A stretch of DNA of 64,000 bases from Patescibacteria group bacterium (GCA_038062915.1 JBBTWD010000016.1:27522-91521), one strand, 5' to 3'; counted from the first letter of the stretch, positions 1-45,157 are shown. A program made the numbers and translations. The notes: generated from the sequence alone by a model not told the origin.

Positions 1-479
1 ATGAAAGCGGTTATTGGTAACAAACTAACCCTTTTTTCTTTTAATATTTTAACTCCAAGAAATATAAATAATGATGTGAATAAAAAGTGAAGTGCGTGTG
101 GATCGGCTTTAATAGCAACTGTCCACAAAGTTGGATTGACCGAAAGAAGAATCCCAAAAGTTATTGCAAGGAATAATTTTTTTGTAAGCTTGAATAGTAA
201 ATAAGAAAAAATATAAATACCCAGACTAACAAATATTGCCGAAAGAAAGTTCATTCTCCAGGCCACTGAATTAAAATGGAATATGGTCAGAAATATTTTA
301 CCAATGACCACATAAGTTGGGTAACCAGTAGGGTGGCCGATATCGAATGTGTAAGGGATGGTTTGAAATTCACCTGTGTCCCAAAATCCCACACCAGGCA
401 ATAAAGTTTTCAAATAAATCGCGAGAGGTAGTATGAAGGCAAGTATTAAAAACTTACCCATCCGAATTTGTTTATCCAT
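1..479 (-). CDS. GT-C fold membrane glycosyltransferase (DUF2723/protein O-mannosyltransferase-like), N-terminal part; runs off window start
   Basis: Minus-strand ORF starting ATG at 477-479 (MDKQIRMGKFLILAFILPLAIYLKTLLPGVGFWDTGEFQTIPYTFDIGHPTGYPTYVV...), open to position 1. The D.GE...GHPPGYP signature is typical of DUF2723 GT-C enzymes. Not in the ORF track because it is truncated by the window edge. Confidence 0.5.
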   Translation of the reverse strand, partial: MDKQIRMGKFLILAFILPLAIYLKTLLPGVGFWDTGEFQTIPYTFDIGHPTGYPTYVVIGKIFLTIFHFNSVAWRMNFLSAIFVSLGIYIFSYLLFKLTKKLFLAITFGILLSVNPTLWTVAIKADPHALHFLFTSLFIFLGVKILKEKRVSLLPITAF

Positions 480-1591
480 ATAACTCCCCAGAGGTTAACA
501 ACTACTCCAATAAAAAGTAGTATCCAATGATATTTTTTCAAACCCACTTTCTCGATGCCTTTAATGGTCAAAAGTGTCAAGAATGGATAAAAATCGACTG
601 CATACCTATAACCAAACTGGGTCCAACCTGTTCCACCTCTTAATGCAACTAGTATAAAGATCAAAATGACGGCTAGCCACAGCATCTTTGTGAGATTTTC
701 TTTAATTGGTGACCAAAACGCAAAAATGAAAACCGGGGTAGTTATCCAAATGGCAAGTCCGTACCACGAGGGTTGAATATATGGTGGGTGATTAAAAAAG
801 TTAGGAAGTTTTAGGAAGAGTATTTTTAAATGTTCTGGAATATAGGCGATATTTAGCATACCCTTAGAAAACCAGGGTTCAGAATAAATCCCAGGTATTA
901 GGAAGTATCCCTTATCTAAAACTGTCCCAAATCTTATAAAATTGTAGTAAAAATTAAACAATACAAAAGGAAGAATACCCAGTCCTAGATAAAAATATTT
1001 TTTAAACCAATCCTTATTAGCTAGTAGGTACAAAAACAAAGGAAGGGATAAAATTGTATGTAGACGTGATAAAAATGCGCTACCCAAAAAGATTCCAATG
1101 AGAAAAGAACGCCTTTTATTTAAACTTTCGTAAAGTGCAGCTGTAGTCAAAAAAGCGGCACTAACTTGCCCCAAATACCAAACCGAACCGGTTGCGGAAA
1201 GATACCAGACAATGCTTCCAAAGCCAATCATTATTCCAAAAAAAATAGCTAGTGGATAACTCTTTTTAAGTTTGTAAGAAATGGCCATTGTTAAAATAAT
1301 AATTCCAGCTCCCAAAATATGCGCTAGATATTGTTGTTCAAAGTTTTTTCCGAAGAAATAGACAAAAGGAAATGATAAAATTGCTGGCATAGGCGGCTGG
1401 ATTACATAGAACCTGCCTCCTGGCCCGGGAACCAGTTCAGATAACCAGTGGGGATTTTCACTTAGGTAGTATTTACCCTGCAGAAACGAACTGGAAAGTC
1501 GGGTAAAATAATCGTAAGGGGTTTTTCCTGCGGAAGTTAAATAATAAACAATGAGAGAAAAGACAAAAGCTAAAATAAAAAGTTTTTTCAT
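446..1591 (-). CDS. polytopic membrane protein, divergent paralog of the downstream GT-C glycosyltransferase
   Basis: 381 aa with many TM segments. N-terminus (MKKLFILAFVFSLIVYYLTSAGKTP) parallels the downstream gene N-terminus (MGKFLILAFILPLAIYLKTLLPGVGF) but lacks the D.GE/GHPxGYP signature. Confidence 0.45.
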   Translation of the reverse strand: MKKLFILAFVFSLIVYYLTSAGKTPYDYFTRLSSSFLQGKYYLSENPHWLSELVPGPGGRFYVIQPPMPAILSFPFVYFFGKNFEQQYLAHILGAGIIILTMAISYKLKKSYPLAIFFGIMIGFGSIVWYLSATGSVWYLGQVSAAFLTTAALYESLNKRRSFLIGIFLGSAFLSRLHTILSLPLFLYLLANKDWFKKYFYLGLGILPFVLFNFYYNFIRFGTVLDKGYFLIPGIYSEPWFSKGMLNIAYIPEHLKILFLKLPNFFNHPPYIQPSWYGLAIWITTPVFIFAFWSPIKENLTKMLWLAVILIFILVALRGGTGWTQFGYRYAVDFYPFLTLLTIKGIEKVGLKKYHWILLFIGVVVNLWGVIWINKFGWVSF

Positions 1592-3950
1592 ACATCCTAT
1601 TTTATACGTTTTATTCTTAGGATTAATAGTTAGACTTATTCTTTCGAATTTTGGAACCCTTCATCTTGATCAAGGGACTTTTACGGCGTGGAGCCGAATT
1701 CTTGCCGACGGAGGACTTAAGACTTTTTACAACGGTTGGAGTGACTACCTCCCGGGGTATTTATATGTTCTCTGGTTTTTGGGAAAAATAAATTTGCTGA
1801 ACATATTACCTCAAGTTGTTCTTTATAAACTTCCAGCAATTTTTGCCGACATATTTACTGGATACTTGATATATAAAATAGTCGGTAGAAAGTTTGGGAC
1901 ATTGGGTGCAAGTTTGTATATTTTTAATCCGGCAATTTTTGCCAATTCGACACTTTGGGGCCAAGTCGATTCGTTTACTATCCTATTTTCTTTGTTAGCT
2001 ATTTATTTACTACCCATACACTATCCGCTATCCGCCATTGCCTTGTCCGTAGGTACTCTTATTAAACCTCAAGCCGCATTCATAGCTCCACTTATCTTGA
2101 TAATGATGATTAGACACAAGTTTTCTCTAGCAAAAGTTTTAGCATTTATCTTTTTAGCATTTAGTATTTTTGTTCTCGCCTTTGTTCCTTTTTGGAACCA
2201 TGGAAATTTATTTGAGTTTATTTTTGGCCGTTTGACGGTCTCTGCAAATCAATATCCTTACACTGCCGTTAACGCATTTAATTTCTGGGGTCTTTTTGGT
2301 CAGTGGAAGCCAGATAATTTATATTTTCAATTTGGGGGTTATTTAATATTTTTGATCTCGTTTATTATTTTTGCAAAAAAAATAAAATCACAATATCTGC
2401 TTGCTGCCTTTTCTTTTTTGTTTTCTTTTTTGTTTTTTACTAGAATGCACGAAAGACACCTCCTCCCTGTTTTTGCCCCTTTGACAATACTTACAGCTAC
2501 CGAATCACTATACCTAATACCACTAGTTGGTCTCTCTTTTGCTTATATTTTAAATCTTCTCTACTCATATAGATGGATAACCAGTGATTTCTTGGTTTCA
2601 TTTGAGCCGTTTCCCGTAATAATTTTGAGTCTTGTTTCTTTCTTAATGCTCTTGTTTATTTCCCTGAAAACCAAAAATGTAAAAATACTGATTAATTCCC
2701 TGGTTAAATTCTTTAACAAAGGCAGGAAAGTTGTCCCCGAGAAGTTCCCCAAGTTTGCCATTCTACGTTCTACATCCTACTTGTTACTGTCCGTCATTCT
2801 TCTTTTTTCTTTTATATCACGAGTATATAAATTAAGTGAACCACCAAAAGATTATTTTGATGAGATTTATCACGCCTTCACCGCCCGTCTTGTTTTGCAT
2901 AATGACCCCAAGGCCTGGGAATGGTGGAATCCACATCCGGAAGGTTTTGCCTATGAGTGGACCCACCCGCCGCTTTCTAAATTAATGATGGCGGGGAGCA
3001 TGAAGATTCTTGGTGAAAATGCTTTTGGCTGGAGATTCCCGCAGGCGATTTTTGGAACGCTATCAATATTCATGATTTACCTTCTTTCCAAGAAAATATT
3101 TAACGACGAAATAATCAGTCTTTTATCCACGTTTATTTTCTCATTAGATGGGCTTTTTTTAGTGCTATCAAGAATGGCCATGAATGACGTCTATGTTTTA
3201 TTCTTCATGCTTTTAACGATTTATCTTTTTTTGAAAGAAAAAGATTTTTGGTCGGCGATTTCTTTGGGTCTTGCAATTGCTTCAAAATGGTCAGCCATTT
3301 GGGTAATTCCGATTTTATTTATCTTGTGGTTAAAACGTAAAAACAAATTCAAGCTTTCGACATTCTTGTTTTTTGGTCTATTACCTATTACTTGTTACAT
3401 ATTAACTTACCTACCTATGTTTTTAACCGGTCATGACTTGGGAACCTGGTGGGGGATGCAGAAACAGATGTGGTGGTACCATACTGGCCTACGTGCGACT
3501 CATCCATATACATCTGCCTGGTGGAGCTGGCCACTAATGACCCGGCCTGTTTACCTTTACACAAGCGATGAGGTGGGTGGCTTTGTCAGCAGAATCTATG
3601 CGATAGGAAACCCGCTTGTTTTTTGGTTTGGTTTAGTATCTATTTTTATGTCTTCAGTTTTTGCATATATTGAGCGAAATAGAAAACTTGGCTTAGTCGT
3701 GTTTGCATATTTAATCTTTTTTGTTCCGTGGGCAATCTCGCCTAGAATAATGTTTCTATATCATTATTTACCATCAATACCATTTTTGGCGATAGCCACG
3801 GGTTACATTCTTCGTCGAAACCCCAAGCTTGCTACATACTACATTCTACTTGCTACTGTTTTATTTGTTTACTTCTACCCTCACTGGGCAGGACTACAAA
3901 TTCCTCTTTGGCTAGACAAATCCTACTATTGGATGGAAAGCTGGAGATAA
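1551..3950 (+). CDS. large two-module GT-C membrane glycosyltransferase (PMT/GT39-like C-terminal module)
   Basis: 799 aa with about 20 predicted TM segments. The second half carries DEIYHAFTARL...WWNPHPEGFAYEWTHPPL, resembling the DE-motif loop of GT39/PMT mannosyltransferases. The first half is a separate GT-C-like module. Confidence 0.5.
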   Translation: MREKTKAKIKSFFIHPILYVLFLGLIVRLILSNFGTLHLDQGTFTAWSRILADGGLKTFYNGWSDYLPGYLYVLWFLGKINLLNILPQVVLYKLPAIFADIFTGYLIYKIVGRKFGTLGASLYIFNPAIFANSTLWGQVDSFTILFSLLAIYLLPIHYPLSAIALSVGTLIKPQAAFIAPLILIMMIRHKFSLAKVLAFIFLAFSIFVLAFVPFWNHGNLFEFIFGRLTVSANQYPYTAVNAFNFWGLFGQWKPDNLYFQFGGYLIFLISFIIFAKKIKSQYLLAAFSFLFSFLFFTRMHERHLLPVFAPLTILTATESLYLIPLVGLSFAYILNLLYSYRWITSDFLVSFEPFPVIILSLVSFLMLLFISLKTKNVKILINSLVKFFNKGRKVVPEKFPKFAILRSTSYLLLSVILLFSFISRVYKLSEPPKDYFDEIYHAFTARLVLHNDPKAWEWWNPHPEGFAYEWTHPPLSKLMMAGSMKILGENAFGWRFPQAIFGTLSIFMIYLLSKKIFNDEIISLLSTFIFSLDGLFLVLSRMAMNDVYVLFFMLLTIYLFLKEKDFWSAISLGLAIASKWSAIWVIPILFILWLKRKNKFKLSTFLFFGLLPITCYILTYLPMFLTGHDLGTWWGMQKQMWWYHTGLRATHPYTSAWWSWPLMTRPVYLYTSDEVGGFVSRIYAIGNPLVFWFGLVSIFMSSVFAYIERNRKLGLVVFAYLIFFVPWAISPRIMFLYHYLPSIPFLAIATGYILRRNPKLATYYILLATVLFVYFYPHWAGLQIPLWLDKSYYWMESWR

Positions 3951-3956
3951 GTTACC

Positions 3957-4361
3957 TTATTTTTCGCACTTGAGGATTCTGTCCCATCTTTTACATTGCT
4001 GATTGGTGAAACACCTCTTAAATCGTGTGGAGCATGAACCCCCTCCACAGGGATTATCCGCGTCACACTTGGTATGATTTCCGCCGCCACCCCCTCCGTC
4101 ATCGCTGGGTTCATAGCAACAAACAAGATCGCCTACACTACAGTCATCCGTCCTCCTTTTTTTATCTGGATGTCTACACTCAGGTTCAGACACACAATCG
4201 CCTCGTAATTGCAAACAAGTATCCCCCGCTGCTTTTTCTCGGATGTCTTGGGACTGCTTGACCAGAAGTACGCCGGCGACGATGGCGCCGACCAAAAAAA
4301 TAAGACTAACCAACTGCCAGGGCTTTTTATTTTCCCTTTTTCCTTTAAAAATTCTAAACAT
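3957..4361 (-). CDS. small membrane-anchored cysteine-rich extracytoplasmic protein
   Basis: 134 aa. N-terminal TM anchor, a poly-Gly stretch, and 15+ Cys in C..C spacing (CDADNPCGGGSCSTRFKRCFTNQQCKRW). Confidence 0.4.
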   Translation of the reverse strand: MFRIFKGKRENKKPWQLVSLIFLVGAIVAGVLLVKQSQDIREKAAGDTCLQLRGDCVSEPECRHPDKKRRTDDCSVGDLVCCYEPSDDGGGGGGNHTKCDADNPCGGGSCSTRFKRCFTNQQCKRWDRILKCEK

Positions 4362-4391
4362 GCTTACGTATAAACGCTATTACAAATTAAA

Positions 4392-4931
4392 TTAAATTGC
4401 AAGTAGCAGTGAGCCCATTATGACGAGTATTCCAAGTCCTGCTCCAAATACTGTTGGCCAGCTGGTTCCAGAGTTTGGAAGAGATGGCTGTGTTGGTGTT
4501 TGGGCCGAGGCACCAGCACATGTACAGTCAGTTTCTGCTACACACGAGGCGTTTCGGCAGAATCCCTGGTAGCAAATAAGATCACTCCCGCAGTTACTAT
4601 TGCTCCCACATGTTCCTCCGCAGGAATTTGGAGTACCGGGAGGTGAAGTTGGGGATTCAGTTGGCGTTGATGTTGCGGTACTGGTTGCCGTAGAAGTGGC
4701 GGTCGATGTTGCGGTTGCCGTGGCTGTAGCTGTAGCTGTTGATGTCGCACCAATCGTAAATGACAATGAGCAATTATTTGTTTCTGCAGCCCTTGGTTTA
4801 CTAGATGGTACATTTGGAGCCACCGGCTGTGCTCTCAATTGGTAAAGCCTGATAGCGGTAAAAATAGCAACTCCAGCTAGAACTAGAGTTATGATTATTA
4901 TTATTCCGGTTACAAATTTAGATTTTTTCAT
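4392..4931 (-). CDS. membrane-anchored protein with Thr/Ser/Ala-rich repeat linker and Cys-rich knot-like domain; C-terminal LPNSG + hydrophobic tail
   Basis: 179 aa. N-terminal TM, TATATATATSTATSTATSTATSTPTESPTSPP linker, CGGTCGSNSNCGSDLICYQGFCRNASC, and a C-terminus of SLPNSGTSW + 20 hydrophobic residues. Confidence 0.45.
   Translation of the reverse strand: MKKSKFVTGIIIIITLVLAGVAIFTAIRLYQLRAQPVAPNVPSSKPRAAETNNCSLSFTIGATSTATATATATATSTATSTATSTATSTPTESPTSPPGTPNSCGGTCGSNSNCGSDLICYQGFCRNASCVAETDCTCAGASAQTPTQPSLPNSGTSWPTVFGAGLGILVIMGSLLLAI
4660..4760 (-). repeat. short in-frame tandem codon repeats (GCxACx units) encoding the (T-A/S-T-A) linker
   Basis: Plus-strand gcggtNgccgtNgNtgtagctgt periodicity is visible directly. 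Confidence 0.7.
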
Positions 4932-4932
4932 A

Positions 4933-5796
4933 TTATTTCCATTGATTTAATATTTTAACTTGTGCTGAAATGTTAAATGTTGTTGTTCCTGCCGGAATTG
5001 TATAAAGATCACAAAATTCATTCTTGCCCCCGCCCGGCCTTTTACCTATCGTTTCCGGCCTTGTGGTTCCATTAACAGTGAACCTTGCGGCTGTAAATTG
5101 AACTCGATCTTGTGCTGGGGTAGTAGTTCCAGTTGCACAGAAATTAACTTGGTTATTAGCTTTGAGGCTAGAAAGCTGAGCTACACTTAGTTGCGTCCAT
5201 GTTGGAGAATAGGCTTTAATATTTTGACAACTAGCGGTGGGAGTGCCATCACCATCATTTACAACACATCTACCACACTTGTCACCAGAAAGAGGTATCC
5301 ATTTACATTTATCTGCCTTTTCTATAGTACATTCCCGTTCGGCAGTTGCGCAGTCTGTTGCCCCAGATTCAGAACAAGTTTCTTCGTATGCTTTTTCTGA
5401 AACACTTTGTTTTTGTTGGGTCAAGATTACTCCTCCGGCGATGCCGCCAATTAATAAAAATAATCCCAATATTGTTGCGATGATTTTTCCTCCGCCGAAT
5501 TTTTTCTTTGGTGGTGGGGAAACCATCATTGAGGACACGTCGTCTAGTGGTGCAGCTGTTCCACCACTTTCACTGGCGATTGGAGACTGGAGATTGGAGA
5601 CTGGCTGCGAGTCTTCAGTTGGCATAGATGAAATATCTGAAGTATCTGCCATTTGAAAGTCAGGGACAGTTATAACTGGATTATCGTCAACTGGGGGAAC
5701 TACCGGAGTTTGAACCGGATCTGTTTGAGTTGGGTCCAACTTCGCTGAAGCTCCGCTGGATAAATCAGATTGATTGGGCATGTTTATAGGTAACAA
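4933..5796 (-). CDS. bitopic protein: Pro/Ser-rich disordered N-terminal region, single TM, Cys-rich extracytoplasmic domain
   Basis: 287 aa. KKKFGGGKIIATILGLFLLIGGIAGGVIL TM at about residue 110. 14 Cys in the C-terminal half. Internal 12-bp tandem repeat (gattggagactg x2) at 5561-5590. Confidence 0.4.
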   Translation of the reverse strand: MLPINMPNQSDLSSGASAKLDPTQTDPVQTPVVPPVDDNPVITVPDFQMADTSDISSMPTEDSQPVSNLQSPIASESGGTAAPLDDVSSMMVSPPPKKKFGGGKIIATILGLFLLIGGIAGGVILTQQKQSVSEKAYEETCSESGATDCATAERECTIEKADKCKWIPLSGDKCGRCVVNDGDGTPTASCQNIKAYSPTWTQLSVAQLSSLKANNQVNFCATGTTTPAQDRVQFTAARFTVNGTTRPETIGKRPGGGKNEFCDLYTIPAGTTTFNISAQVKILNQWK

Positions 5797-7075
5797 AAGA
5801 CAGCGCCATAACGCCTATACCCAGAATAGAGAAAAGAATGGTCGGAGTCAAGTTACCAGTTTGAGGAATAGGCGCTGGGCTTGCAGTTACTTTTGGACTA
5901 GACGTTGGTTTAGCATTTGACGAGGCGGTGGGAGTTGGGGTTGCAGTTGTGGTCTCTCCAGAACCAGATGCCTCAAAGGCCGGAGCTTCACCCGCTTGAA
6001 CAACAAAATTTCTAGTTAGTTTTCTGGTTATTCCGGTTATATCTTTCCAGGAAATAGTAATTTTATGAACTCCAGGACTTAAATTTTCCGGTGGATTCCA
6101 ATTCCAAGATCCGGCAGTGCCAATAGTGACGGATGCTGTTATGGGATTTTCAGACTCGACAGTTATTGTTAATATAGTTCCTTTTGGCCCGTCACCAAAA
6201 AATTCTGGTTCGGTGCTAGTTACCACCTCTCCATCATCTAAACTCTCAAGGGTTACACTTTGAGCTGGTCCAGAAACGGGGACATTGTCGGCTACGGCGA
6301 ACTTGGATTTTTCTTCTGAATTTTCAGGAAGATCGACTTCGGCATTAGGTGTTCCTCCAGATGTTGATATTGGAAGGCTTCGAAAATCATGTGTTTGCCC
6401 AAGTACCATGGGTGGGGCGGGTTTAGCAGATTGTGGAAAAATTTGAGCGGTTGAAACATCCCCAGTTCCTGTCTCCACAAAAATTTCAACTAAGGTTTGC
6501 GCCTCGTTGATTTCTAGCAAGTTTTTTAAATCTTGAGTTCTTGTAGCCCCTAACTGAAAAACATAATTGCCGGTAGGAGAGGTTAATGTTGAGAGTATAT
6601 ATCCTTGAATATTTGCATAAACTAAGGCATTTTTGATTGTTTCCCCAGTTGAACTTATTACCGATCCTGATATAAGCACAGAATTTTCGCTAACATTTAA
6701 AGCAGATCCTGTTTTTGTTTTCCAGGGAATCCCATTGTTGTCAAACAGTATTCCTCCTGAATTTATTTTATAGGAGTATTCAGTTTCAGCCTTAAGATCG
6801 TTTAGTGCCACACTGTGAGTGAAAGACTTTTTGCTATCTTGAACCAATTTGTTTTGACCCCAAAGCACAAACCCGACAGACTCCTTGTCTGTAACCCAAG
6901 AGATTGTCAGACTAGTATCTGAAATATTAGAAACCCGTATATTTTTAGGCATTGCCTCTCCGGATGCTCCTAATCTAAAAATAGCTCTCGAATTAACTAA
7001 TATAACTCCAAAAAGTGTTCCAACAATTAAAACTATTAGTCCGAGTATTGTTGGAAGTTTATTTTTTTTAATCAT
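5765..7075 (-). CDS. surface protein with N-terminal signal-anchor, fibronectin type III-like domain, Ig-like/beta-sandwich region, Thr/Pro/Ser-rich stalk and C-terminal IPQTG sorting-signal-like motif
   Basis: The ORF track starts at a TTG at 7093, but the ATG at 7075-7073 (MIKKNKLPTILGLIVLIVG) is the likely start. IRVSNISDTSLTISWVT...YSYKI resembles FN3. The C-terminus is PIPQTGN-LTPTILFSILGIGVMALSFV-TYKHAQSI (motif + TM + basic tail). Confidence 0.5.
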   Translation of the reverse strand: MIKKNKLPTILGLIVLIVGTLFGVILVNSRAIFRLGASGEAMPKNIRVSNISDTSLTISWVTDKESVGFVLWGQNKLVQDSKKSFTHSVALNDLKAETEYSYKINSGGILFDNNGIPWKTKTGSALNVSENSVLISGSVISSTGETIKNALVYANIQGYILSTLTSPTGNYVFQLGATRTQDLKNLLEINEAQTLVEIFVETGTGDVSTAQIFPQSAKPAPPMVLGQTHDFRSLPISTSGGTPNAEVDLPENSEEKSKFAVADNVPVSGPAQSVTLESLDDGEVVTSTEPEFFGDGPKGTILTITVESENPITASVTIGTAGSWNWNPPENLSPGVHKITISWKDITGITRKLTRNFVVQAGEAPAFEASGSGETTTATPTPTASSNAKPTSSPKVTASPAPIPQTGNLTPTILFSILGIGVMALSFVTYKHAQSI

Positions 7076-7140
7076 AAGCGTAGCTTGTGACAAACTTTGT
7101 TTATCATAAGCGTAGCTTGTGACAAACTTTGTTTATCATG
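7071..7140. repeat. perfect 32-bp tandem direct repeat x2 plus 6-bp partial third copy
   Basis: atcataagcgtagcttgtgacaaactttgttt occurs at 7071-7102 and 7103-7134, then atcatg. The first copy overlaps the ATG (read on minus strand) of the FN3 gene. Confidence 0.9.
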
Positions 7141-7145
7141 AAATG

Positions 7146-7340
7146 TTACTCATTTCTATTTTGAATATCTCTAATAATATCTTGATCTAGGAATGGCACC
7201 AATGGTTTTGAGATTTCATCAGGTACCACCAAAGATGGTTTTACGACAACTGCTCGGTAAACGCTTAAAGATATCCACATAATTGCAGTTAGGGTTGTCA
7301 AAATTAAAATTGTAACAATGTTAGGAATTTTGTTTTTCAC
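7146..7340 (-). CDS. small single-TM protein (pilus-assembly associated?)
   Basis: 64 aa. N-terminal TM. Positioned between the pilO-like gene and the FN3 gene in the same operon. Confidence 0.3.
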   Translation of the reverse strand: MKNKIPNIVTILILTTLTAIMWISLSVYRAVVVKPSLVVPDEISKPLVPFLDQDIIRDIQNRNE

Positions 7341-7990
7341 TGGATAAACGGTAACCTGCCTGAAATTATAGCTACAATAATATTTCCACTTTCGGACGTA
7401 GTTGTATTAATTCCAAAGGCATCAATTTTTATCGGACGGCGCAAGTTTTCTAAGTCGCGGGCTGTAGAAATTATTCCCTGATAATTTCCACTAATACTAA
7501 TTGAAACAGTCATTTCTTTTGATCCTGTAGATAATGGTTTTAAACCAGCTTCCTTCTTCTTGGCCTGATCATCTTTTCCCAAAAGTATTATTTCTCCTAC
7601 AGATACACCCAAGACTTGAACGGCGTTTTTGCTTGCGACAGCTTGTATCTGCCCAACAAAAATTTCTGGCTGTGGTTGATTGGGGACGGCCAGGTCTACC
7701 AGTGGAATAACCCCTGAATTTTCAGAATAAAGACTGCTTGCGGTATCTAGATTTGCAATTTTCTGATCAAGTAAAGAAATAGTTTTTTCTTTCTCATTGA
7801 CTTCTTTAACCAAGGAGATAATGGTCAGGGCGGTAGGTTTTAGGGCAAATAAACCAAATATGGTTATTGTAATTAGGGAAAGAATAACTTCCAAAAACAT
7901 CTTGAGGTCACGGCGCTGTTTGTAAAGCACCACGACATTTAAAAAATACTCTTTGTACCGTAAATATTGTCCTCGCCATCCAAGTGCCAT
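7337..7990 (-). CDS. pilO: PilO-like type IV pilus assembly protein
   Basis: 217 aa. Basic N-terminus, one TM, coiled-coil, then a globular domain. Immediately follows the PilN-like gene with a 1-bp gap. Confidence 0.4.
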   Translation of the reverse strand: MALGWRGQYLRYKEYFLNVVVLYKQRRDLKMFLEVILSLITITIFGLFALKPTALTIISLVKEVNEKEKTISLLDQKIANLDTASSLYSENSGVIPLVDLAVPNQPQPEIFVGQIQAVASKNAVQVLGVSVGEIILLGKDDQAKKKEAGLKPLSTGSKEMTVSISISGNYQGIISTARDLENLRRPIKIDAFGINTTTSESGNIIVAIISGRLPFIQ

Positions 7991-7991
7991 A

Positions 7992-8531
7992 TTATTTTAT
8001 TAAAAGCTTGATATTAAAGACTGTTAGTGACGGATTATTTTCTGATGAATTTAGTTGACCGAGAGATATGTCTTTAAATGCGGCATCGGCGTTTAGATTG
8101 GAAATAAATTGAGCAATTCCCATTTCACTTCCAGCAACTCCTTTGATTTGGGCTGAAGTTTCCTGAAATGATATCGACTGAAGGCTAACCTCACCGGGTA
8201 CCTTGGCAACGATTTTAGCTATAGTATCGGAAGGTTTTTTCTCTTTTGATAGATCTTTAAAAATTTGGAGTTTTGCTTGTAAAGTTCTAAAACTTTTTTC
8301 AAAATCACTTTGGGCTTTTATTTGGGCAGTCTTAATTTGTAGTTGATCGTTTAGATCAGAGTTTTGAGCATCTAACCAAAATCGGGAAAGAAATGCTCCC
8401 ATAACTACCATTTCGGTGATTATTACAATATACCTAAAAGATGTCATTGCCCAACGAAGCAATCTCCCTAGCGTTGAAGCCTCAAATTCTTCTTGAGGAA
8501 GTAGATTGATTAACTTTTTTTTGGTAGCCAT
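7992..8531 (-). CDS. pilN: PilN-like type IV pilus assembly protein
   Basis: 179 aa. N-terminal INLLP signature (MATKKKLINLLPQEEF), single TM, coiled-coil. Confidence 0.55.
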   Translation of the reverse strand: MATKKKLINLLPQEEFEASTLGRLLRWAMTSFRYIVIITEMVVMGAFLSRFWLDAQNSDLNDQLQIKTAQIKAQSDFEKSFRTLQAKLQIFKDLSKEKKPSDTIAKIVAKVPGEVSLQSISFQETSAQIKGVAGSEMGIAQFISNLNADAAFKDISLGQLNSSENNPSLTVFNIKLLIK

Positions 8532-8546
8532 GCTACTTTCAATATA

Positions 8547-8795
8547 CTATTTTGATTTTGTTTTTGGAAGAAGCTTTGACAAAGCGCTTTTAATCCTGGC
8601 GGATTTATTTTTGTGGATAACTTTCTTTTTTGTGGCCCTGTCAGCCAATGAAGTTGCTTTGAATATCGAGTCTAGACTCTTAAGTTTTCTAGCTTTTCTT
8701 AAGGCCACTTCAAGCTTTGAAATGATAATTTTATTAACACTAGTTTTTTTATGGGAGCTTCTCAAGGCTCTTTTGGCTGTTTTAGTAACCGGCAT
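8547..8795 (-). CDS. rpsT: 30S ribosomal protein S20
   Basis: MPVTKTAKRALRSSHKKTSVNK... internal Met of the 95-aa ORF is the conserved bS20 start. Confidence 0.75.
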   Translation of the reverse strand: MPVTKTAKRALRSSHKKTSVNKIIISKLEVALRKARKLKSLDSIFKATSLADRATKKKVIHKNKSARIKSALSKLLPKTKSK

Positions 8796-8814
8796 CCCAA
8801 TAGTATAATCGACC

Positions 8815-10476
8815 TTGATAATGAAATCAATCAAAAACCTATTTAATTCACAACAAAAGACTGTTCTTTCCGCCGCGACAATTATTATGTTTATGGTTGT
8901 TGCCAGTCGAATCCTGGGTCTTGTTCGTCAAAGAGTTTTGGCAAGTTTTTTTACGCCAGATGAACTTTCACTTTTCTTTGCCGCGTTTCGCTTACCCGAT
9001 TTGGTTTTTGAGGTATTAGTTTTTGGGACCTTTTCAGCCGCATTTATCCCAGTTTTTACAGGACTTATCAAAAAAAACAAAAATGAGGCTTGGAAGGTGG
9101 CTACAACAGTTGTCAATATTGGATTTTTAGTTTTTTTAATTTTGGCAGGATTTTTAATCTTTTTTTCATCTCATCTTTATGGTGTTTTAGCTCCTGGATT
9201 CACAAATGGACAACAAGTAACAATAGTAAGGCTTACTAGAATTCTGTTTGCGGCCCAAGGCTTTTTTGTTATTAGTTACGTTTTAACTGCAGTTTTAGAA
9301 TCATCACGGCGTTTTTTAATTCCTGCGGTCGCTCCACTTTTTTATAACCTAGGAATCATTTTTGGTACACTAATTTTTGCTCCCAAGTTTCATCTTATGG
9401 CCCCAGTCATCGGGGTTATAGTGGGCTCTGCTCTGCATCTTTTAATTCAACTCCCCCTTTCTTTAAAACTTGGTTTCAGATTTAGGTCAAAAATTTCCAT
9501 TGATGATAATGTAAGAAAAATTGGAAGACTTGCACTCCCCAGAATTATTGAAGTTTCAGTGATTCAGGTTATGAAAACGGTCGAGCTTTTTTTGGCTTCA
9601 TTAATTTCAACTGCTTCATATACTTATTTTACTCTAGGCAACACCATTCAACTTATTCCAGTTGGACTTTTTGGGACATCGATAGCCAAAGCATCTCTAC
9701 CCACACTATCAAGACAGGTGGGCCAGCCAGGCGTTTTCAGGAAAACACTTTTTGATGCTCTATATCAGATGGTTTTTTTAATTTTGCCAGTTTCGGCCAC
9801 ATTGATAGTTTTAAGAATCCCCATAGTAAGGCTTATTTTTGGGACAGATATGTTTGATTGGGAAGCAACGGTCCAAACCGGAATGGTTGTTTCGGCATTC
9901 GCCGTTGGAGTTATCTTCCAAGCTGGTGCAAGTCTACTTTCAAGGGCATTTTATGCCATGCACGATACAAAGACTCCCGTTATTATTTCTATAATCTCAT
10001 TAATTATTAATATTAGCTTGGCATTTATTTTTGTCAAAGTTTTTAGTCTTCCCTCTTGGTCTCTGGCACTTGCCTACTCTATCGGAGTTTTTATACAAGG
10101 CGCCACTCTTTTTATAGTAATCAATAATCGTCTTAAAAATGGTCCGATTTGGAAACTTCTTTCCCCACTTTTTAAATCAGTATTTTCATCCGTAGTTTCA
10201 GGTGTCGTGATGTATTTTATGCTCAAGTTTTTTGATAGATGGGTTTGGATAAAAAATTCGCCGGCCAATCTTCCTTTTGAGAGGTTTGTTTTGGATACAA
10301 GATATGCCGGAAACCTTTTGGCATTAACCATGTTGGTAATTTTATCGGGCGCCTTGGCTTACTTTTTAACTTCTTATTTACTAAAATCTCAAGAATTAAC
10401 TAATTTTTTAAACTTGTTTAAACGATTTTTTATTTCAAGAAAAATAGAACCCATTTCAGACCTTGACAAGGGTTAG
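8815..10476 (+). CDS. murJ: lipid II flippase MurJ (MviN)
   Basis: 553 aa with 14 TM segments. ILGLVRQRVLASFFT N-terminal motif. Confidence 0.8.
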   Translation: MIMKSIKNLFNSQQKTVLSAATIIMFMVVASRILGLVRQRVLASFFTPDELSLFFAAFRLPDLVFEVLVFGTFSAAFIPVFTGLIKKNKNEAWKVATTVVNIGFLVFLILAGFLIFFSSHLYGVLAPGFTNGQQVTIVRLTRILFAAQGFFVISYVLTAVLESSRRFLIPAVAPLFYNLGIIFGTLIFAPKFHLMAPVIGVIVGSALHLLIQLPLSLKLGFRFRSKISIDDNVRKIGRLALPRIIEVSVIQVMKTVELFLASLISTASYTYFTLGNTIQLIPVGLFGTSIAKASLPTLSRQVGQPGVFRKTLFDALYQMVFLILPVSATLIVLRIPIVRLIFGTDMFDWEATVQTGMVVSAFAVGVIFQAGASLLSRAFYAMHDTKTPVIISIISLIINISLAFIFVKVFSLPSWSLALAYSIGVFIQGATLFIVINNRLKNGPIWKLLSPLFKSVFSSVVSGVVMYFMLKFFDRWVWIKNSPANLPFERFVLDTRYAGNLLALTMLVILSGALAYFLTSYLLKSQELTNFLNLFKRFFISRKIEPISDLDKG

Positions 10477-21448: not shown

Positions 21449-22498
21449 ATGTTTAATCCTAAATTTGCCATTACCAACAAACTCCTTTCAAATATTAAAG
21501 AAATAGGATCAATTATCACCGAACTTAACAATAGGAAATTTTCTAACCTAGTTCTGGTGGAAATGGAAAGGCTTGCTCGCGAAATCTCTTCGCATGCCTC
21601 AACTAGTATTGAAGGTAATCCACTACCATTAACCGATGTTAAACGACTGATTAAAACTGACCCGAAAAATATTCGTGATAGTGAAAAAGAAGTCCTAAAT
21701 TATAATAACGTCTTAAAACAAATAAACAAAAATCTTAAAAACAATAACATTCATTTTTCCCTAGATTTGATCTTAAAGATACAAAAAGGAGTTGTTGATG
21801 ATCTGCTACCAGATTACGACACAGGGGTGTTACGAAAGCGGCCAGTGTTTGTAAATAACCCGTCATTAAGAAAGGTAGTTTATCTACCTCCAGATCATTC
21901 TAATGTCCCCCTATTAATAGATGAACTGATTATGTTTATAAAAAGCAAGAGTGATGAAATAGACCCAATAATATTGGCGGGAATATTTCATAAACAATTT
22001 GTTTTAATCCATCCGTTTATAGATGGAAATGGAAGAACGACAAGACTACTCACAAAGATTTTACTTGCGGAAATGGGTCTGAATACTTTTAATTTGTTTA
22101 GTTTTGAAAATTATTACAATAAAAATGTAACAAGATATTTTGAATTTGTTGGAGAAATTGGTAATTACTATGAATTAAGTAAAAATGTTGATTTTACGAA
22201 GTGGCTTGAATATTTTACCGATGGAATTATTGATGAACTTTTAAGGGTTAAAAAGATACTTAGTATTCAAGTTGATCCTAAAAATGTAGTTTATAGTCAT
22301 GACCAAAAGGTGTTGGATTTTGTTGAAAAAAACGGATTTATTAAAAATAGTGATTACGCCAAGTTAATTAAGCGCTCAAAAGCTATGCGAGTAATCAATC
22401 TTAATAGACTAATTGAAATGGGTTTAATTGAGCGGAAAGGAAAAGGTAAGGCAACTTTTTATGTTTTAAAAAAGACTTTGGGAGATAAATTTCACTAA
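21449..22498 (+). CDS. Fic/DOC family protein (AMPylation-type active site) with C-terminal winged-helix region
   Basis: HPFIDGNGRTTR matches the Fic motif HxFx(D/E)GNGRxxR. 349 aa. Confidence 0.8.
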   Translation: MFNPKFAITNKLLSNIKEIGSIITELNNRKFSNLVLVEMERLAREISSHASTSIEGNPLPLTDVKRLIKTDPKNIRDSEKEVLNYNNVLKQINKNLKNNNIHFSLDLILKIQKGVVDDLLPDYDTGVLRKRPVFVNNPSLRKVVYLPPDHSNVPLLIDELIMFIKSKSDEIDPIILAGIFHKQFVLIHPFIDGNGRTTRLLTKILLAEMGLNTFNLFSFENYYNKNVTRYFEFVGEIGNYYELSKNVDFTKWLEYFTDGIIDELLRVKKILSIQVDPKNVVYSHDQKVLDFVEKNGFIKNSDYAKLIKRSKAMRVINLNRLIEMGLIERKGKGKATFYVLKKTLGDKFH

Positions 22499-29918: not shown

Positions 29919-31685
29919 ATGGTTACGACAAATGAAGTTCGAGAAAAATATTTAAAATTTTTTGAAAAAAGGGGTCACAAAGTTATTCCCGCCTCCCCAC
30001 TTGTTTTAGAAAATGATCCTACGACCCTTTTTACTTCAAGCGGTATGCAACAAATGATTCCATATCTTAAAGGTGAAAAACATCCGTTGGGTAAAAGGTT
30101 GGTTGACTCGCAGCCCTCAATTAGAATGCAGGATCTTGATGAGGTGGCAGACAACAGACATTATTCTTTTTTCGAGATGCTTGGCAATTGGTCTCTGGGT
30201 GACTATTTTAAGAAAGAACAACTTGACTGGATTTGGGAATTTTACACAAAAGAATTGGGACTGGATAAAAAGAGATTATATGTTTCAATATTTGCTGGGA
30301 ACAATGATGTTCCAAAAGACACAGAAAGTTACGAGATTTGGAAAAGTCTGGGGGTAGAAGAGGGCCATATCCACTTCTATGGTGCCAAAAAGAACTGGTG
30401 GAGTATAAGTGGGCTCCCAGACAAAATGCCAGCAGGTGAAATCGGCGGACCAGATAGTGAAATTTTTTTTGAATTCGATTCAGTCGAACACAATACAAAA
30501 TTTGGTCAAGAATGTCACCCCAACTGTGACTGTGGAAAATTTCTTGAGATAGGCAATTCAGTTTTTATACAGTTCAAAAAAGAAGCGGATGGAACCTTGT
30601 CTGAACTGCCACAAAAAAATGTCGATTTTGGGGGAGGTTTAGAAAGAATCACGGCCGCGGTCAATAACGATCCTGATACATTTCATATTGATTCGTTTTC
30701 AGAAATAATCAAAAAAATAGAAGAAGAGGTTGGTATAAAATATAATTCAGATTCCAAAAAAGACAAAAATTTTAGAATAATCGCGGACCATATTCGTGCT
30801 TCGACGAGTTTATTAAAAGAGGGGATTCTACCGGCCAATAAATTACATGGTTATGCATTACGAAGACTGATTCGTCGCGCAATGTTTCATTTACACTTAC
30901 TTGGAGGGGGAGTTTCTGGAACAACTTTGGCCCATATTGCAGGAGACCCAGAAGGTGCAAAAGAAGGATTTATAGAAGAAGGTAAAAGATTTGCTGATGC
31001 CTTAAAGCGCGGACTTAAAAAATTAATCAATATTGTTTCAAATGATACCAAAGTTGATGGAAAAGTAGCCTTTGATTTATACCAAACAGGTGGCTTTCCA
31101 CTTGAACTTACACTTGAAATTCTTTCCCAGAATGAAATGACTTTTAATGAAGGCGCAAAAGAAGAATTTAAAAAAGAGTTTGAAAAACACAAAAATTTAA
31201 GTAGAACAACTTCAGCTGGAATATTTAAAGGTGGGTTGTCTGATAAATCTGATAAAACGGTTACAAAACTTCATACGGCAACACACCTACTTCATGCTGC
31301 ACTTCGAGAAATTATAGGTAGTCATGTCTCACAGAAAGGAAGCCATATAACTGCCGAAAGATTACGCTTTGATTTTTCTCATCAAAATAAACTTAGCGAT
31401 GAGGAAAAAACCGAAGTTGAAAATTTAATAAATAAAAAAATTAAAGAAAACTTACCAGTTTCTTTTAAAGAAACAAGTCTTGATGATGCGATTGTCCAAG
31501 GTGCATTACATTTTTTTGCTGAAAAATACGGAAAAGATGTTAAGGTCTACTCAATCGGTGATTTTTCAAAAGAAGTTTGTGGTGGCCCGCATGTGGGGAA
31601 CACCAGTGAGGTTGGTCGTGTTAAGATTATCAAACAGGAGAAAATTGGCGCGGGAGTTATTAGAATCTACGCTAGCTTACAATGA
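29919..31685 (+). CDS. alaS: alanyl-tRNA synthetase, short form lacking C-Ala domain
   Basis: Catalytic-core motifs (FFEMLGNWSLGDYFK) and editing-domain motifs (HTATHLLHAAL, CGGPHV). 588 aa. Confidence 0.85.
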   Translation: MVTTNEVREKYLKFFEKRGHKVIPASPLVLENDPTTLFTSSGMQQMIPYLKGEKHPLGKRLVDSQPSIRMQDLDEVADNRHYSFFEMLGNWSLGDYFKKEQLDWIWEFYTKELGLDKKRLYVSIFAGNNDVPKDTESYEIWKSLGVEEGHIHFYGAKKNWWSISGLPDKMPAGEIGGPDSEIFFEFDSVEHNTKFGQECHPNCDCGKFLEIGNSVFIQFKKEADGTLSELPQKNVDFGGGLERITAAVNNDPDTFHIDSFSEIIKKIEEEVGIKYNSDSKKDKNFRIIADHIRASTSLLKEGILPANKLHGYALRRLIRRAMFHLHLLGGGVSGTTLAHIAGDPEGAKEGFIEEGKRFADALKRGLKKLINIVSNDTKVDGKVAFDLYQTGGFPLELTLEILSQNEMTFNEGAKEEFKKEFEKHKNLSRTTSAGIFKGGLSDKSDKTVTKLHTATHLLHAALREIIGSHVSQKGSHITAERLRFDFSHQNKLSDEEKTEVENLINKKIKENLPVSFKETSLDDAIVQGALHFFAEKYGKDVKVYSIGDFSKEVCGGPHVGNTSEVGRVKIIKQEKIGAGVIRIYASLQ

Positions 31686-33691
31686 AAATGAATTTGAAAG
31701 ACTTTTTTGCCCAAAAAGAAAAACCGCCGGAAACGTATTGGTCATTGGTTCTTGAACCTGGTTGGGTACAGGCTGGTATTTGGCACATAACGGACAGTGT
31801 GGCTCAGGTGATAACAAGTAGTCCCGCAACGCCCTGGGAAGCTAACGATGAACTTATAGGGGCAATCGATACTGCACTTTCTTCCGCTGTTCAAAAACTT
31901 CCAGAAGGAGCTTCTGAACCCACAAAAACTGTTTTTGGGGTAAGTAGCAATTGGATAAAAGATGGAGAAATCGGTAGTGAATATCTAGAAAAAATTAAAA
32001 AGGTTTGTGAAGATCTTTCCTTAACCCCAACCGGCTTTGTAGTACTCCCCGAGGCAATCGCCCATTATTACAAATCTATTGAGGGGGTACCTATCAACTC
32101 TATAATTTTAGGTCTTGGTAAGAATTTTTTGGAGGTTTCTGTTTTTTCGTTGGGAAATTTAGTTGGAACATCAAGTGTTGCAAGGAGCGTTTCTTTAGCT
32201 GACGACGTGGTCGAGGGTTTATCAAGGTTTGAGGGGGCAAGCCCTCTTCCTTCTAGGATAATTATATTTAATGGTCGGGGTGGCGAACTTGAAGAAGCAA
32301 GAGATACCCTTTCCGGGGTTGCCTGGGATCAAAATACAAAAATCCAATTTTTACACACACCTAAGGTTGAAATTTTAGAATCCGACAAAAAAGTCCTTGC
32401 CACATCACTAGCTGGAGCGGCTGAAATTGGTCAGGCTTCAGCGATATCTAATGTTTCTGAAGTTTCAGCCACTACCTCACTTGCGAATCTTGGATTTTCT
32501 GTCGGGAAAGATGTTTCAGAGGAGGTTTTGCCACCCCCACCATCTCCTGTAGTCCAAAAGCCTGAACTTTACCTAACAAAACTAAAAAGTTTCTTTACTG
32601 GCAAAAAATTCACACCCCTTATAGTTATTTTTGGGGTTTTTATATTTGGTTTAATATTTTTTTGGTGGTTTTATCCTAAAGCCACAGTATCGATCTATGT
32701 TTCTCCTCAAAAGTTTGAGGAAGAGTTTGATATTTCATTTGATGTCAACGAAATTAATAAAGTAAGCGTTTCAGGAGAAAAAACTAAATCCGCAACCGGA
32801 ACGAAATTAATTGGAGAAAAAGCTAAAGGTGTCGTGAGTTTGAGAAATGGCACAGATTCTCCTATAAACTTTCCAGCTAGCACGGTTTTGGTGTCTTCGG
32901 GGGACTTAAGATTTAGTTTAAACGAAACCGCTTCGGTTTCTGCCGCAATTGACGCTGATAATCCGGGAACTGCCGGGGCCAATGTGACTGCTCTCGACCT
33001 TGGGTCGGCTTACAATTTAGCTAAAGATGAAGTTTTTAAGGTTGGCAATTATCCTAAGGCGGATGCTTATGCAAAATCTACTTTGGATTTTTCAGGCGGG
33101 TCAAGTAGGGAGATTTCAGCTGTAAACATAGAAGATCGAGAAAAACTCTTAAACGAATTAACAAACGAACTTTCCGATAAAGCTAGGGGGGAATTTTTGG
33201 TAAAAACTAATAATGATCAAGTTTTTGTTAATTCGTTTGCTGTTTTTGAAATAGATAAACAATCTTTTAGTCACAAGATTGGGGATGAGGCGGATACTCT
33301 AAAACTAGATCTATCCATGATCGCTACTGGAGTTATTACAAATAAGCAACGTTTGGCTGACTTTGTTAGGGAAAAATTAAAAGACAAAATTCCCCAGGGA
33401 TTTGTTTTAAGAGATACACAAGTGGATTATAAATTTGAATTTATAGATGCTGATGGGGAAAAATATAATTATAAAATGACTACAACCGTTAATTTTTTAC
33501 CAGAGATCAAAACAGAGGAAATAATCAAAAAGATCACTGGTAAGTTGCCTCAACTGGTTGAAGAGTATCTTTCATCAACTCCCGGTTTTTCTCGAGCCGA
33601 AATTCGCGTCACCCCTCTCCTTTTTGGTAAATTTGCAACTTTACCAAGGGTAGCTAAAAACATTACCATAGAGGTCGTAGCGGAAAAATGA
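31682..33691 (+). CDS. membrane protein: N-terminal actin-fold ATPase-like (PilM/FtsA-like) cytoplasmic domain, one TM, large extracytoplasmic domain
   Basis: 669 aa. LVLEPGWVQAGIW, LPEAIAHYY and IILGLGKNFLEVSVF are consistent with an ASKHA/PilM-FtsA fold. TM at about residue 315. Confidence 0.4.
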   Translation: MKMNLKDFFAQKEKPPETYWSLVLEPGWVQAGIWHITDSVAQVITSSPATPWEANDELIGAIDTALSSAVQKLPEGASEPTKTVFGVSSNWIKDGEIGSEYLEKIKKVCEDLSLTPTGFVVLPEAIAHYYKSIEGVPINSIILGLGKNFLEVSVFSLGNLVGTSSVARSVSLADDVVEGLSRFEGASPLPSRIIIFNGRGGELEEARDTLSGVAWDQNTKIQFLHTPKVEILESDKKVLATSLAGAAEIGQASAISNVSEVSATTSLANLGFSVGKDVSEEVLPPPPSPVVQKPELYLTKLKSFFTGKKFTPLIVIFGVFIFGLIFFWWFYPKATVSIYVSPQKFEEEFDISFDVNEINKVSVSGEKTKSATGTKLIGEKAKGVVSLRNGTDSPINFPASTVLVSSGDLRFSLNETASVSAAIDADNPGTAGANVTALDLGSAYNLAKDEVFKVGNYPKADAYAKSTLDFSGGSSREISAVNIEDREKLLNELTNELSDKARGEFLVKTNNDQVFVNSFAVFEIDKQSFSHKIGDEADTLKLDLSMIATGVITNKQRLADFVREKLKDKIPQGFVLRDTQVDYKFEFIDADGEKYNYKMTTTVNFLPEIKTEEIIKKITGKLPQLVEEYLSSTPGFSRAEIRVTPLLFGKFATLPRVAKNITIEVVAEK

Positions 33692-44912: not shown

Positions 44913-45157
44913 ATCTGATTTGTTGCTTCGTCAATCGCAGCTTGAACTTCTGACTGTTTGTATTTTGAAGTATTTTTGCGAATCTTTTCAATTGTTTTAA
45001 AAAGTCTATCTTTTGATTCCTGTCTGTATTTTCGAAATTGTTCAAATTGAATCATAGAAACTAGCACCGCCTTTGGCTTTCCTGCACGTTCGATTATAAA
45101 AGCCATTTGTTTCAAATCAACTTGGTCAAGATAGGTTCCAGGCTGTTTTCTAAAATT
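44909..45157 (-). CDS. Phd/YefM-type antitoxin
   Basis: MNFRKQPGTYLDQVDLKQMAFIIERAGKPKAVLVSMIQFEQF. Stop overlaps the PIN start (ATGA-type coupling). The start may instead be at 45202. Confidence 0.5.
   Translation of the reverse strand, partial: NFRKQPGTYLDQVDLKQMAFIIERAGKPKAVLVSMIQFEQFRKYRQESKDRLFKTIEKIRKNTSKYKQSEVQAAIDEATNQI

Follow-up and report, generated by a model that had tools for sequence, protein, structure and literature searches.

In streptococci and staphylococci, the loci for serine-rich repeat glycoproteins (Fap1, GspB, SraP) are self-contained and encode LPXTG-anchored, Ser/Thr-rich repeat proteins together with dedicated glycosyltransferases, GT-A and GT-B enzymes that act in the cytoplasm on nucleotide sugars, export then taking place via the accessory SecA2/Y2 system. 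In the GspA-LcpA-SrtA pathway of Actinomyces oris, reportedly worked out by Wu and colleagues in 2014, a sortase substrate is said to be glycosylated on the membrane before it is anchored to the wall, with an LCP enzyme transferring the glycan and no GT-C glycosyltransferase involved. Patescibacteria (candidate phyla radiation, CPR) are mostly uncultured epibionts whose surface is the interface with their hosts, and to our knowledge almost nothing is known of how they decorate or anchor surface proteins. The GT39 protein O-mannosyltransferase (Pmt) of actinobacteria works on the outer side of the membrane with a polyprenyl-phosphate sugar as donor (PMC11727336, PMC5882110), and 58-65 hexoses are reported on the S/T-rich linker of a secreted enzyme from an actinobacterium. 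In humans, TMEM260 transfers O-mannose to Ig-like IPT domains, and of its bacterial relatives only "distant homologs in bacteria" are noted (PMC10214176). In Saccharibacteria, pilMNO are found inside full type IV pilus loci (PMC11623550). Here we describe a locus in a stretch of 64,000 nucleotides from a Patescibacteria group bacterium (GCA_038062915.1 JBBTWD010000016.1:27522-91521), the whole of which is called the window below. The locus occupies the left 8.8 kb and combines pilN and pilO, genes for stalked surface proteins and genes for GT-C glycosyltransferases. It is a lineage-wide cell-envelope locus of Woesebacteria (Microgenomates, Patescibacteria/CPR) and neither a mobile nor a strain-specific island.

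The reading that we favour, tentatively and at slightly less than an even chance, is that of a surface-display locus, in which exported stalk proteins would be O-glycosylated by the neighbouring GT-C enzymes and the FN3 protein, perhaps also the Cys-rich protein C179, would be attached to peptidoglycan by a sortase. Like the Pmt/Ppm1 systems of M. tuberculosis, C. glutamicum, S. coelicolor and Cellulomonas, the locus encodes a membrane GT39 enzyme with a DE motif and without a MIR domain, and its candidate substrates are exported proteins with Ser/Thr/Pro-rich linkers. Unlike in those systems, the GT39 domain is fused to an ALG3/PimE-like GT-C module, the host is a CPR bacterium, no Ppm1 is seen nearby, and the genes for the candidate substrates, which bear sortase-type signals, form a cluster next to that of the enzyme. 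An LCP-family gene in the neighbourhood recalls the A. oris pathway, but GT-C enzymes are present here; the LCP gene, which is beyond the left edge of the window and converges on the GT-C genes, may have a similar role by analogy. The clustering of stalk proteins with glycosyltransferases is shared with the serine-rich repeat loci, whereas the GT-C enzymes here are extracytoplasmic and accessory Sec genes are absent. As in PilM-PilN-PilO(-PilP-PilQ) clusters, pilN and pilO are adjacent in canonical order and PilN has an N-terminus of the PilM-binding type; as in diderm pil operons, a small envelope protein and a beta-sandwich protein follow, in the positions of PilP and PilQ. Unlike in those clusters, there is no pilM upstream and no secretin, and the proteins encoded downstream show no sequence relationship to PilP and PilQ; among them is a putative sortase substrate. 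The parts are of known kinds (GT39 O-mannosylation, sortase anchoring, LCP-linked glycosylation, serine-rich repeat loci, the PilMNO complex); what is distinctive is the fusion of GT39 with a second GT-C module, the CPR host, an extended C-terminal signal in two classes, and the placement of pilN and pilO in a surface-protein operon beside murJ, and not in a pilus locus. The initial annotation had not recognised the combination as a described system, and in the full-text literature no description was found of the locus, nor of GT39 or TMEM260-like enzymes in CPR bacteria.

The operon consists of eight co-directional minus-strand genes with very short spacers, in the order rpsT-pilN-pilO-sTM-FN3-C287-C179-C134. 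Counted in this order from rpsT, the spacers are 15 bp, 1 bp, a 4-bp overlap, 70 bp, an overlap, 1 bp and 30 bp. All eight genes, and the adjoining GT-C genes, were recovered where the initial annotation had placed them. The first gene, rpsT (8547-8834), encodes ribosomal protein S20 (Pfam S20p 31.8 bits, cutoff 29.5) and is followed by pilN in every Woesebacteria locus. The GT-C genes, which the initial annotation had described as abutting the operon, are transcription units apart from it: the gene for the GT39 fusion converges on the operon and diverges from the two remaining GT-C genes. The operon boundaries are taken from gene spacing, because a promoter and terminator scan of positions 1-9200 found no more sites than in shuffled sequence.

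The gene closest to the end of the operon, on the plus strand (1551-3950), encodes a protein of 799 residues that had been taken for a single GT-C glycosyltransferase and is a tandem fusion of two GT-C modules. The C-terminal module (2793-3950, residues 415-798) is a GT39 protein O-mannosyltransferase module, with matches to Pfam PMT (PF02366, 57 bits, cutoff 22.7), PMT_2 (PF13231, 59.9 bits, cutoff 26.1) and PMT_4TMC (PF16192, 65.2 bits, cutoff 32.4). Its segment YFDEIYHAF aligns with VVFDEVHFG of fungal Pmt4 (9i5k), including the FDE motif, and the DE motif of the first extracytoplasmic loop (D437 and E438) is invariant in 26 orthologs. As a family annotation this is not new, since orthologs of the fusion are already called "glycosyltransferase family 39 protein" at NCBI. 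The N-terminal module (1551-2765, plus strand) has an ALG3/PIG-M/PimE-like fold: it is a polytopic GT-C module whose first outward loop bears a conserved acidic residue, and its profile found no match in a sequence search of the PDB. In its N-terminal half the protein is similar to glycan-extending enzymes that depend on lipid-phospho-sugars, and in its C-terminal half to the initiator of protein O-mannosylation. The two halves are joined by a Lys/Arg-rich segment (residues 389-410), which is consistent with the usual N-in topology predicted for both modules.

The second GT-C gene runs off the start of the window on the minus strand, so that its N-terminal 159 codons (1-477) are available; these encode a TMEM260-like (DUF2723) domain (PF11028, 6e-20, 72.2 bits, cutoff 24.2) with the acidic motif WDTGEF after the first transmembrane (TM) helix, a candidate counterpart of the catalytic Asp52 of the human enzyme. 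As in metazoan TMEM260, a PF11028 domain is combined with an acidic motif in the first outward loop, and Ig-like and FN3 proteins are encoded nearby. Differences from the metazoan protein are that the window holds 159 residues only, that the ortholog in the related locus L003, of 463 residues, has no TPR region, the part used in substrate recognition, by Pfam, and that the bacterial homologs are uncharacterized. Between this gene and the fusion lies the gene for a polytopic membrane protein of 381 residues, GTC381 (446-1591, minus strand), which is found in 26 of 43 related loci and is sometimes duplicated. No Pfam family was matched by 25 of its orthologs, nor was there a match in a PDB sequence search; the NCBIfam model for the putative glycosyltransferase LA_3751/LA_3752 gave 1e-6, far below cutoff, and hhalign to the profile of the N-terminal fusion module gave a probability of 93% (E 3.5e-7). 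GTC381 is, on these comparisons, probably a divergent GT-C protein. Of the three GT-C proteins initially proposed, the TMEM260-like and GT39 proteins are therefore established above family cutoffs and the third is probable. These matches above cutoff are to the GT39 PMT and PMT_4TMC domains and to the TMEM260-like family, and not to the lipid-carrier or arabinosyltransferase families that had been named as the finding that would speak against protein glycosylation. Read as the longest open reading frames (ORFs), the genes for the GT39 fusion (start 1551, plus strand) and for GTC381 (start 1591, minus strand) have 41 bp in common at their 5' ends: one start is misassigned, or else each promoter lies inside the coding sequence of the other gene.

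Candidate substrates are encoded in the operon. When the 80 non-nested ORFs of the window were surveyed for stalks and C-terminal signals, only the FN3 protein and C179 were found to have Ser/Thr/Pro/Ala-rich stalks. The FN3 protein (5765-7075, minus strand) has 436 residues when read from the ATG at 7075, to which its start was corrected. It consists of a signal or TM helix, an fn3 domain, a CarboxypepD_reg-like domain, a Big_13 domain (all three by Pfam), a T/P/S/A stalk, the motif IPQTG-LTPT, a TM helix and a basic tail, and ends in ...IPQTGNLTPTILFSILGIGVMALSFVTYKHAQSI. At least 366 full-length homologs exist, of about 50% identity and constant length, with G413 and T418 invariant in the alignment; judged by these sequences, the protein is unusually conserved for a surface protein. 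The next gene, C287 (4933-5781, minus strand), encodes a TM-anchored protein with nine cysteines, made up of a disordered cytoplasmic N-terminus, a TM helix, a Cys-rich segment and a conserved C-terminal beta-sandwich domain. C179 (4392-4931, minus strand; 179 residues, also nine cysteines) has an N-terminal TM helix, a (TA/TS)n stalk, one 8-Cys module, the sequence LPNSGTSWPT and a C-terminal TM helix without a basic tail. All 64 matches of a jackhmmer search with C179, a list that includes some stalk-bearing neighbours, have STPAG-rich stalks; their cysteine counts of 0/1, 9, 17 or 25 show the 8-Cys modules to be optional. The last gene of the operon, C134 (3957-4361, minus strand), encodes a TM-anchored protein of 134 residues with 12 cysteines and without a C-terminal signal. 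It is an accessory paralog of the N-terminal part of C287, sharing with C287-type proteins the TM helix and the motif Q-x-Q-D-I-R-E-K-A; a C134-type protein is present in few loci only, and in L003 it takes a longer form (C328, 328 residues) with a sorting-type C-terminus. The GC content is 0.454 at 4001-6000, against 0.36-0.39 in the adjacent 2-kb bins, a rise due to the Thr/Ala/Pro/Gly/Cys-rich coding of the stalk and Cys-rich proteins, for which no foreign origin is needed.

The FN3 protein and C179 are also the only products of the surveyed ORFs that end in a motif followed by a TM helix. The signal common to both is P-x-[TSA]-G-x-x-x-P-T plus TM helix. In the FN3 family it reads [LVTI]-P-x-[TSA]-G-x-L-T-P-T and is followed by the TM helix and by Lys or Arg (on average 1.45 in the last ten residues), and in the C179 family it reads L-P-x-[SA]-G-[TIV]-x-W-P-T, with a TM helix ending in ...LLLAL; L-P-x-[SA]-G-x-x-W-P-T is present in 46 of 53 C179 members. 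First-pass phmmer family assignments were used for these statistics, because the jackhmmer families were cross-contaminated via the low-complexity stalks and the common C-terminal signal. The two families, unrelated in other respects, share one register (P at 1, G at 4, P at 8, T at 9), which argues for one common processing enzyme. A candidate for this enzyme is encoded in the window, 27 kb from the operon (33688-34380, plus strand): it matches Pfam Sortase (PF04203, 4.7e-22) and TIGR01076 sortase_fam (46.8 bits, cutoff 39.35), none of the sortase class models reaches its cutoff on it, and the GHS, TC and R motifs, with the His, Cys and Arg, can be read in its sequence. It is probably this sortase that would process the FN3 and C179 signals. 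Because the curated LPXTG models miss their cutoffs on the tails, both proteins are treated as putative sortase substrates, C179 with less assurance. A signal of the exosortase, archaeosortase or rhombosortase type was considered for C179 and rejected, as no such enzyme was found among the window ORFs scanned with Pfam, a scan that covered the window mainly outside the rpoB/rpoC-ribosomal-protein stretch, as the NCBIfam sorting-domain models gave no match to C179, and as the register fits the FN3 signal. The sortase gene is adjoined by an ORF of 669 residues (31682-33691, plus strand), the end of which overlaps the sortase start, in the gene run alaS, 669-residue ORF, sortase, ruvX. This ORF has no Pfam, NCBIfam or PDB sequence match and would have a cytoplasmic N-domain of about 300 residues, one TM helix (around 310-330) and a large ectodomain.

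Upstream in the operon, pilN (7992-8531, minus strand) matches Pfam PilN (2.2e-10, 40.9 bits, cutoff 22.8), and the profile of its orthologs matches PilN of M. xanthus (3jc8) at 1.8e-8. The N-terminus of the protein carries INLLP, a motif of the PilM-binding type, in which N9, L10 and P12 are nearly invariant in the ortholog alignment. The pilO gene (7337-7990, minus strand) encodes a PilO-like bitopic protein that scores below the Pfam PilO cutoff on its own (0.012, 16.1 bits, cutoff 22); as a profile of 30 orthologs it matches the PilO structures 3jc8 (best, 2.4e-8), 5uvr and 2rjz. By these sequence comparisons, both are genuine PilN and PilO homologs. Next comes a small bitopic protein of 64 residues, sTM (7146-7340, minus strand), without a family match, which sits between pilO and FN3 in all 59 loci. 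Its alignment shows a conserved TM helix, the segment VP-x-EIL-x-PL-x-P-x-LD and a variable tail, and most relatives have an extra Pro/Thr-rich tail. That sTM is a pseudogene or the result of a frameshift was ruled out, since it is equally short in six other lineages and since the distance to FN3 in the window is only 70 bp. Between the sTM stop (7146) and the FN3 start lies part of a tandem repeat of 32 bp in 2.4 copies (7064-7139, minus strand; Tandem Repeats Finder score 138, 95% matches), which duplicates the start region of FN3. The two upstream copies each open an upstream ORF of 11 codons (MINKVCHKLRL), at ATG 7139 and 7107, and the TGA of each overlaps the next ATG (ATGA overlap); most relatives have a 4-bp overlap between the sTM gene and the FN3 start. 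The initial annotation had suggested a coupling of the module to pilus-assembly components. The PilN and PilO identities stand, and no pilM, pilB, pilC, pilT, pilD or pilin gene is found among the flanking genes identified within 10 kb at the 59 loci, nor any pilM or pilus motor, platform or pilin gene among the Pfam-scanned ORFs of the window.

A scan of a genome collection with the FN3 alignment gave 58 loci, almost all from metagenome-assembled genomes of Woesebacteria and other Microgenomates and including complete genomes, to which two look-ups added more. The genome of the window is itself metagenome-assembled (Patescibacteria/Microgenomates); its best database match, 100% identical, is an NCBI protein from a "Patescibacteria group bacterium", and the relatives are Woesebacteria. 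In the counts given here, the denominator is the number of loci whose contig reaches far enough for the gene concerned. The general order is hrcA and murJ, then rpsT, pilN, pilO, sTM, FN3, C287, C179, sometimes C328 and a TM protein of 98 residues, and then, convergent with these, the GT39 fusion. Beyond the fusion follow GTC381 (one or two copies), the TMEM260-like gene, PMT_2 and DUF2298 or PIG-V-like genes in varying mixes, then the LCP gene, and then UvrD and FemAB-family genes. The set pilN-pilO-sTM-FN3 is present in 59 of 59 loci, C287 in 44 of 51, a C179-type gene in 46 of 51, the GT39 fusion in 40 of 43 (convergent in 38) and the LCP gene, a glycopolymer transferase of the LCP family by NCBIfam, in 37 of 38. 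The neighbourhood is thus kept in about 59 related genomes, and not unconserved, the other finding that the initial annotation had named as speaking against it; as the same order recurs in 59 independent loci, the arrangement is beyond chance. Beyond LCP, UvrD is followed by one or two genes of the FemAB family, which comprises peptidoglycan cross-bridge peptidyltransferases (L011 18391-20263, L028 18347-20163, L043 19820-20764); they are a further cell-wall feature of the neighbourhood. The interval between C179 and the GT39 fusion holds, at about half of the loci, a conserved TM protein of 90-114 residues (SYPFDLF...GGWS.GYF; L003 14456-14752). The window has no such gene; there, 6 bp separate the end of C134 from the GT39 stop.

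Three deep-branching loci, L058, L060 and L061, have FN3 proteins that are 26-30% identical (44% over a partial match of 133 residues in L061). Their outer flanks differ (lepA, metG, tatD, folD) and C287 and C179 are absent, but murJ, pilN, pilO, sTM and FN3 are together and are followed on the same strand, after one or two enzymes, by PMT or PMT_2 GT-C genes. The genes between FN3 and the PMT-like genes encode a flavin amine-oxidase-like protein (L058 5661-6947, L061 10745-12013) or a UbiA prenyltransferase (L060 11303-12226). In L060 (6862-9084), murJ is directly upstream of pilN on the same strand, with rpsT on its other side, so the adjacency of murJ and pilN has survived rearrangement. 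These loci are more telling on linkage than the synteny within Woesebacteria, which alone cannot prove a functional connection because the housekeeping neighbours are equally conserved and the adjacency may be inherited.

Under the surface-display reading, the Lys-rich segments that precede each TM helix would place the stalks of the exported proteins outside the membrane. There, at its outer face, the adjacent GT-C enzymes would O-glycosylate them from a polyprenyl-phosphate sugar, the GT39 half of the fusion adding the first hexose to Ser or Thr and the ALG3/PimE-like half extending it. The TMEM260-like enzyme may instead target folded Ig-like domains, by analogy with the human protein (PMC10214176). 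The sortase would probably cleave the common signal and link the FN3 protein and C179 to peptidoglycan. The result would be a surface layer of stalked domains, glycosylated and tethered to the wall, in which the FN3 protein would likely also be physically associated with PilN and PilO. Glycosylation and display are plausible by homology: the GT39 module passes its Pfam cutoffs with the DE motif intact, the TMEM260-like domain passes its own, a sortase is encoded in the window, and the only stalk proteins of the 64 kb, both with sorting-type ends, lie in one operon within about 3 kb of the GT39 enzyme. To this extent the O-glycosylation and surface display proposed at the outset are supported in part, with glycosylation, and mannose as the sugar, kept as a proposal. 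The word "self-contained", also used for the module, goes further than the evidence: no polyprenyl-phosphate-sugar synthase is found among the Pfam-scanned ORFs of the window and the loci, the sortase gene is distant, and the LCP gene lies beyond the window edge.

Several observations weigh against this reading. Glycosylation, like any other function of the locus in this lineage, is a prediction from sequence. The GT39 half scores 62.9 bits with the actinobacterial Pmt equivalog model (NCBIfam NF058602, PrMnsylTfPmt), the cutoff of which is 800; going by these scores, it is a distant GT39 member and no ortholog of actinobacterial Pmt. A polyprenyl-phosphate-mannose synthase (Ppm1-type GT2) was likewise not found among the scanned ORFs, and the UbiA and flavoprotein genes beside the distant GT-C genes may signal a lipid-linked sugar donor other than mannose. 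The C-terminal tails score below the cutoffs of the LPXTG hidden Markov models (PF00746, 14.7 against 20; TIGR01167, 12.7 against 15.9), and sortase signals usually have a basic tail, whereas all 53 C179 members have zero Lys or Arg in their last ten residues. The GT39 gene is a separate, convergent transcription unit, the content of the GT-C island varies between genomes (L028, L030 and L035 lack the fusion), and the housekeeping synteny hrcA-murJ-rpsT is equally conserved within Woesebacteria. Of the functional coupling between operon and GT-C genes that had been suggested, the adjacency holds, set against a variable island and housekeeping neighbours that are as well conserved.

The main alternative is an explanation by common descent, in which the GT-C island, with LCP, MurJ and FemAB, builds and attaches a wall glycopolymer or modifies lipids, and the operon merely lies next to it in a small, poorly rearranged genome, the stalks being no substrates. 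The near-constant LCP gene (37 of 38 loci), the FemAB genes of the relatives, the separate transcription units and the equal conservation of the housekeeping genes all agree with it. So does the make-up of the island, whose PMT_2, DUF2298, PIG-V-like and GT87-like members across relatives bear no protein-specific signature, and the UbiA and flavoprotein genes of the distant loci resemble lipid-linked donor pathways for wall polymers. What makes us regard it as unlikely, though still to be taken seriously, is that the fusion has kept an intact DE motif and an intact GT39-specific PMT_4TMC domain, that PMT-like genes stay beside FN3 in the deep-branching loci where other flanks have changed, that the only stalk proteins of the window are so close to the enzyme, and that the sole characterized TMEM260 homolog, the human one, is a protein O-mannosyltransferase (PMC10214176). 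Another alternative makes the FN3 protein, C287 and C179 host-attachment or S-layer-like proteins of an episymbiont, with the stalks as unglycosylated spacers and the C-terminal motifs as simple membrane anchors. Folds of the beta-sandwich and Ig-like kinds are common building blocks of adhesins, the tail of C179 is uncharged, and genomes differ in how many Cys modules and C287/C179 pairs they encode, as they would under diversifying pressure; the FN3 protein, however, is highly conserved and not variable, a sortase is present, and an extended motif kept in register across two unrelated families argues for recognition by a processing enzyme, so that we consider a plain adhesin cassette very improbable.

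The conservation of the FN3 protein, at about 50% identity over its full and constant length, would fit a reading of pilN-pilO-sTM-FN3 as a unit of a type IV pilus or competence pseudopilus, in which sTM and a wall-anchored FN3 protein replace PilP/PilQ-type parts and tie the alignment complex to peptidoglycan, C287, C179 and glycosylation being accessory. The genuine PilN and PilO, the former with its INLLP motif kept, the contiguity of the four genes in every one of the 59 loci, with stop/start overlaps, and the persistence of the unit in distant lineages that lack C287 and C179 all point this way. That no pilM, pilB, pilC, pilT, pilD or pilin gene is among the flanking genes identified within 10 kb points the other way, and a contact between PilN/PilO and FN3 is putative. 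Nor are we aware of a sortase-anchored component in any characterized monoderm type IV pilus system, which counts against the idea, and we think it improbable. The surface-display, wall-glycopolymer and pilus readings are not fully mutually exclusive, and a bolder proposal can be made. An unrecognized envelope-spanning complex of Woesebacteria and related CPR bacteria could be formed by PilN, PilO, sTM and the FN3/Ig protein with its sortase-type signal, C287 and C179 being accessory; it would be a pilus alignment module tethered covalently to peptidoglycan via O-glycosylated stalks and a monoderm substitute for PilP plus secretin, served by a dedicated two-module enzyme (initiating GT39 and extending GT-C). 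This too we hold to be doubtful, to much the same degree as the pilus unit.

The remaining genes of the window are housekeeping genes: murJ, the lipid II flippase gene (8815-10476, plus strand; Pfam MurJ 5e-74), which is the divergent neighbour of the operon, hrcA-grpE-dnaK-dnaJ, nusA, infB, pnp, rpoBC and genes for ribosomal proteins. A Fic/DOC-domain protein is encoded between pnp and def (21449-22498), and a Phd/YefM-PIN toxin-antitoxin pair lies on the minus strand between the rpoC-distal genes and fusA (44469-45379).

If the wall-glycopolymer explanation were true, the locus would be a case of ordinary conserved envelope synteny. If the surface-display reading is true, the locus would be the first candidate for a bacterial protein O-mannosylation system outside Actinobacteria, with a naturally occurring fusion of two GT-C enzymes, one that initiates and one that extends. 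It would offer a compact, defined set of candidate substrates and a new sortase-type signal, both open to heterologous expression, and it would place PilN and PilO in a context other than the standard pilus operon.

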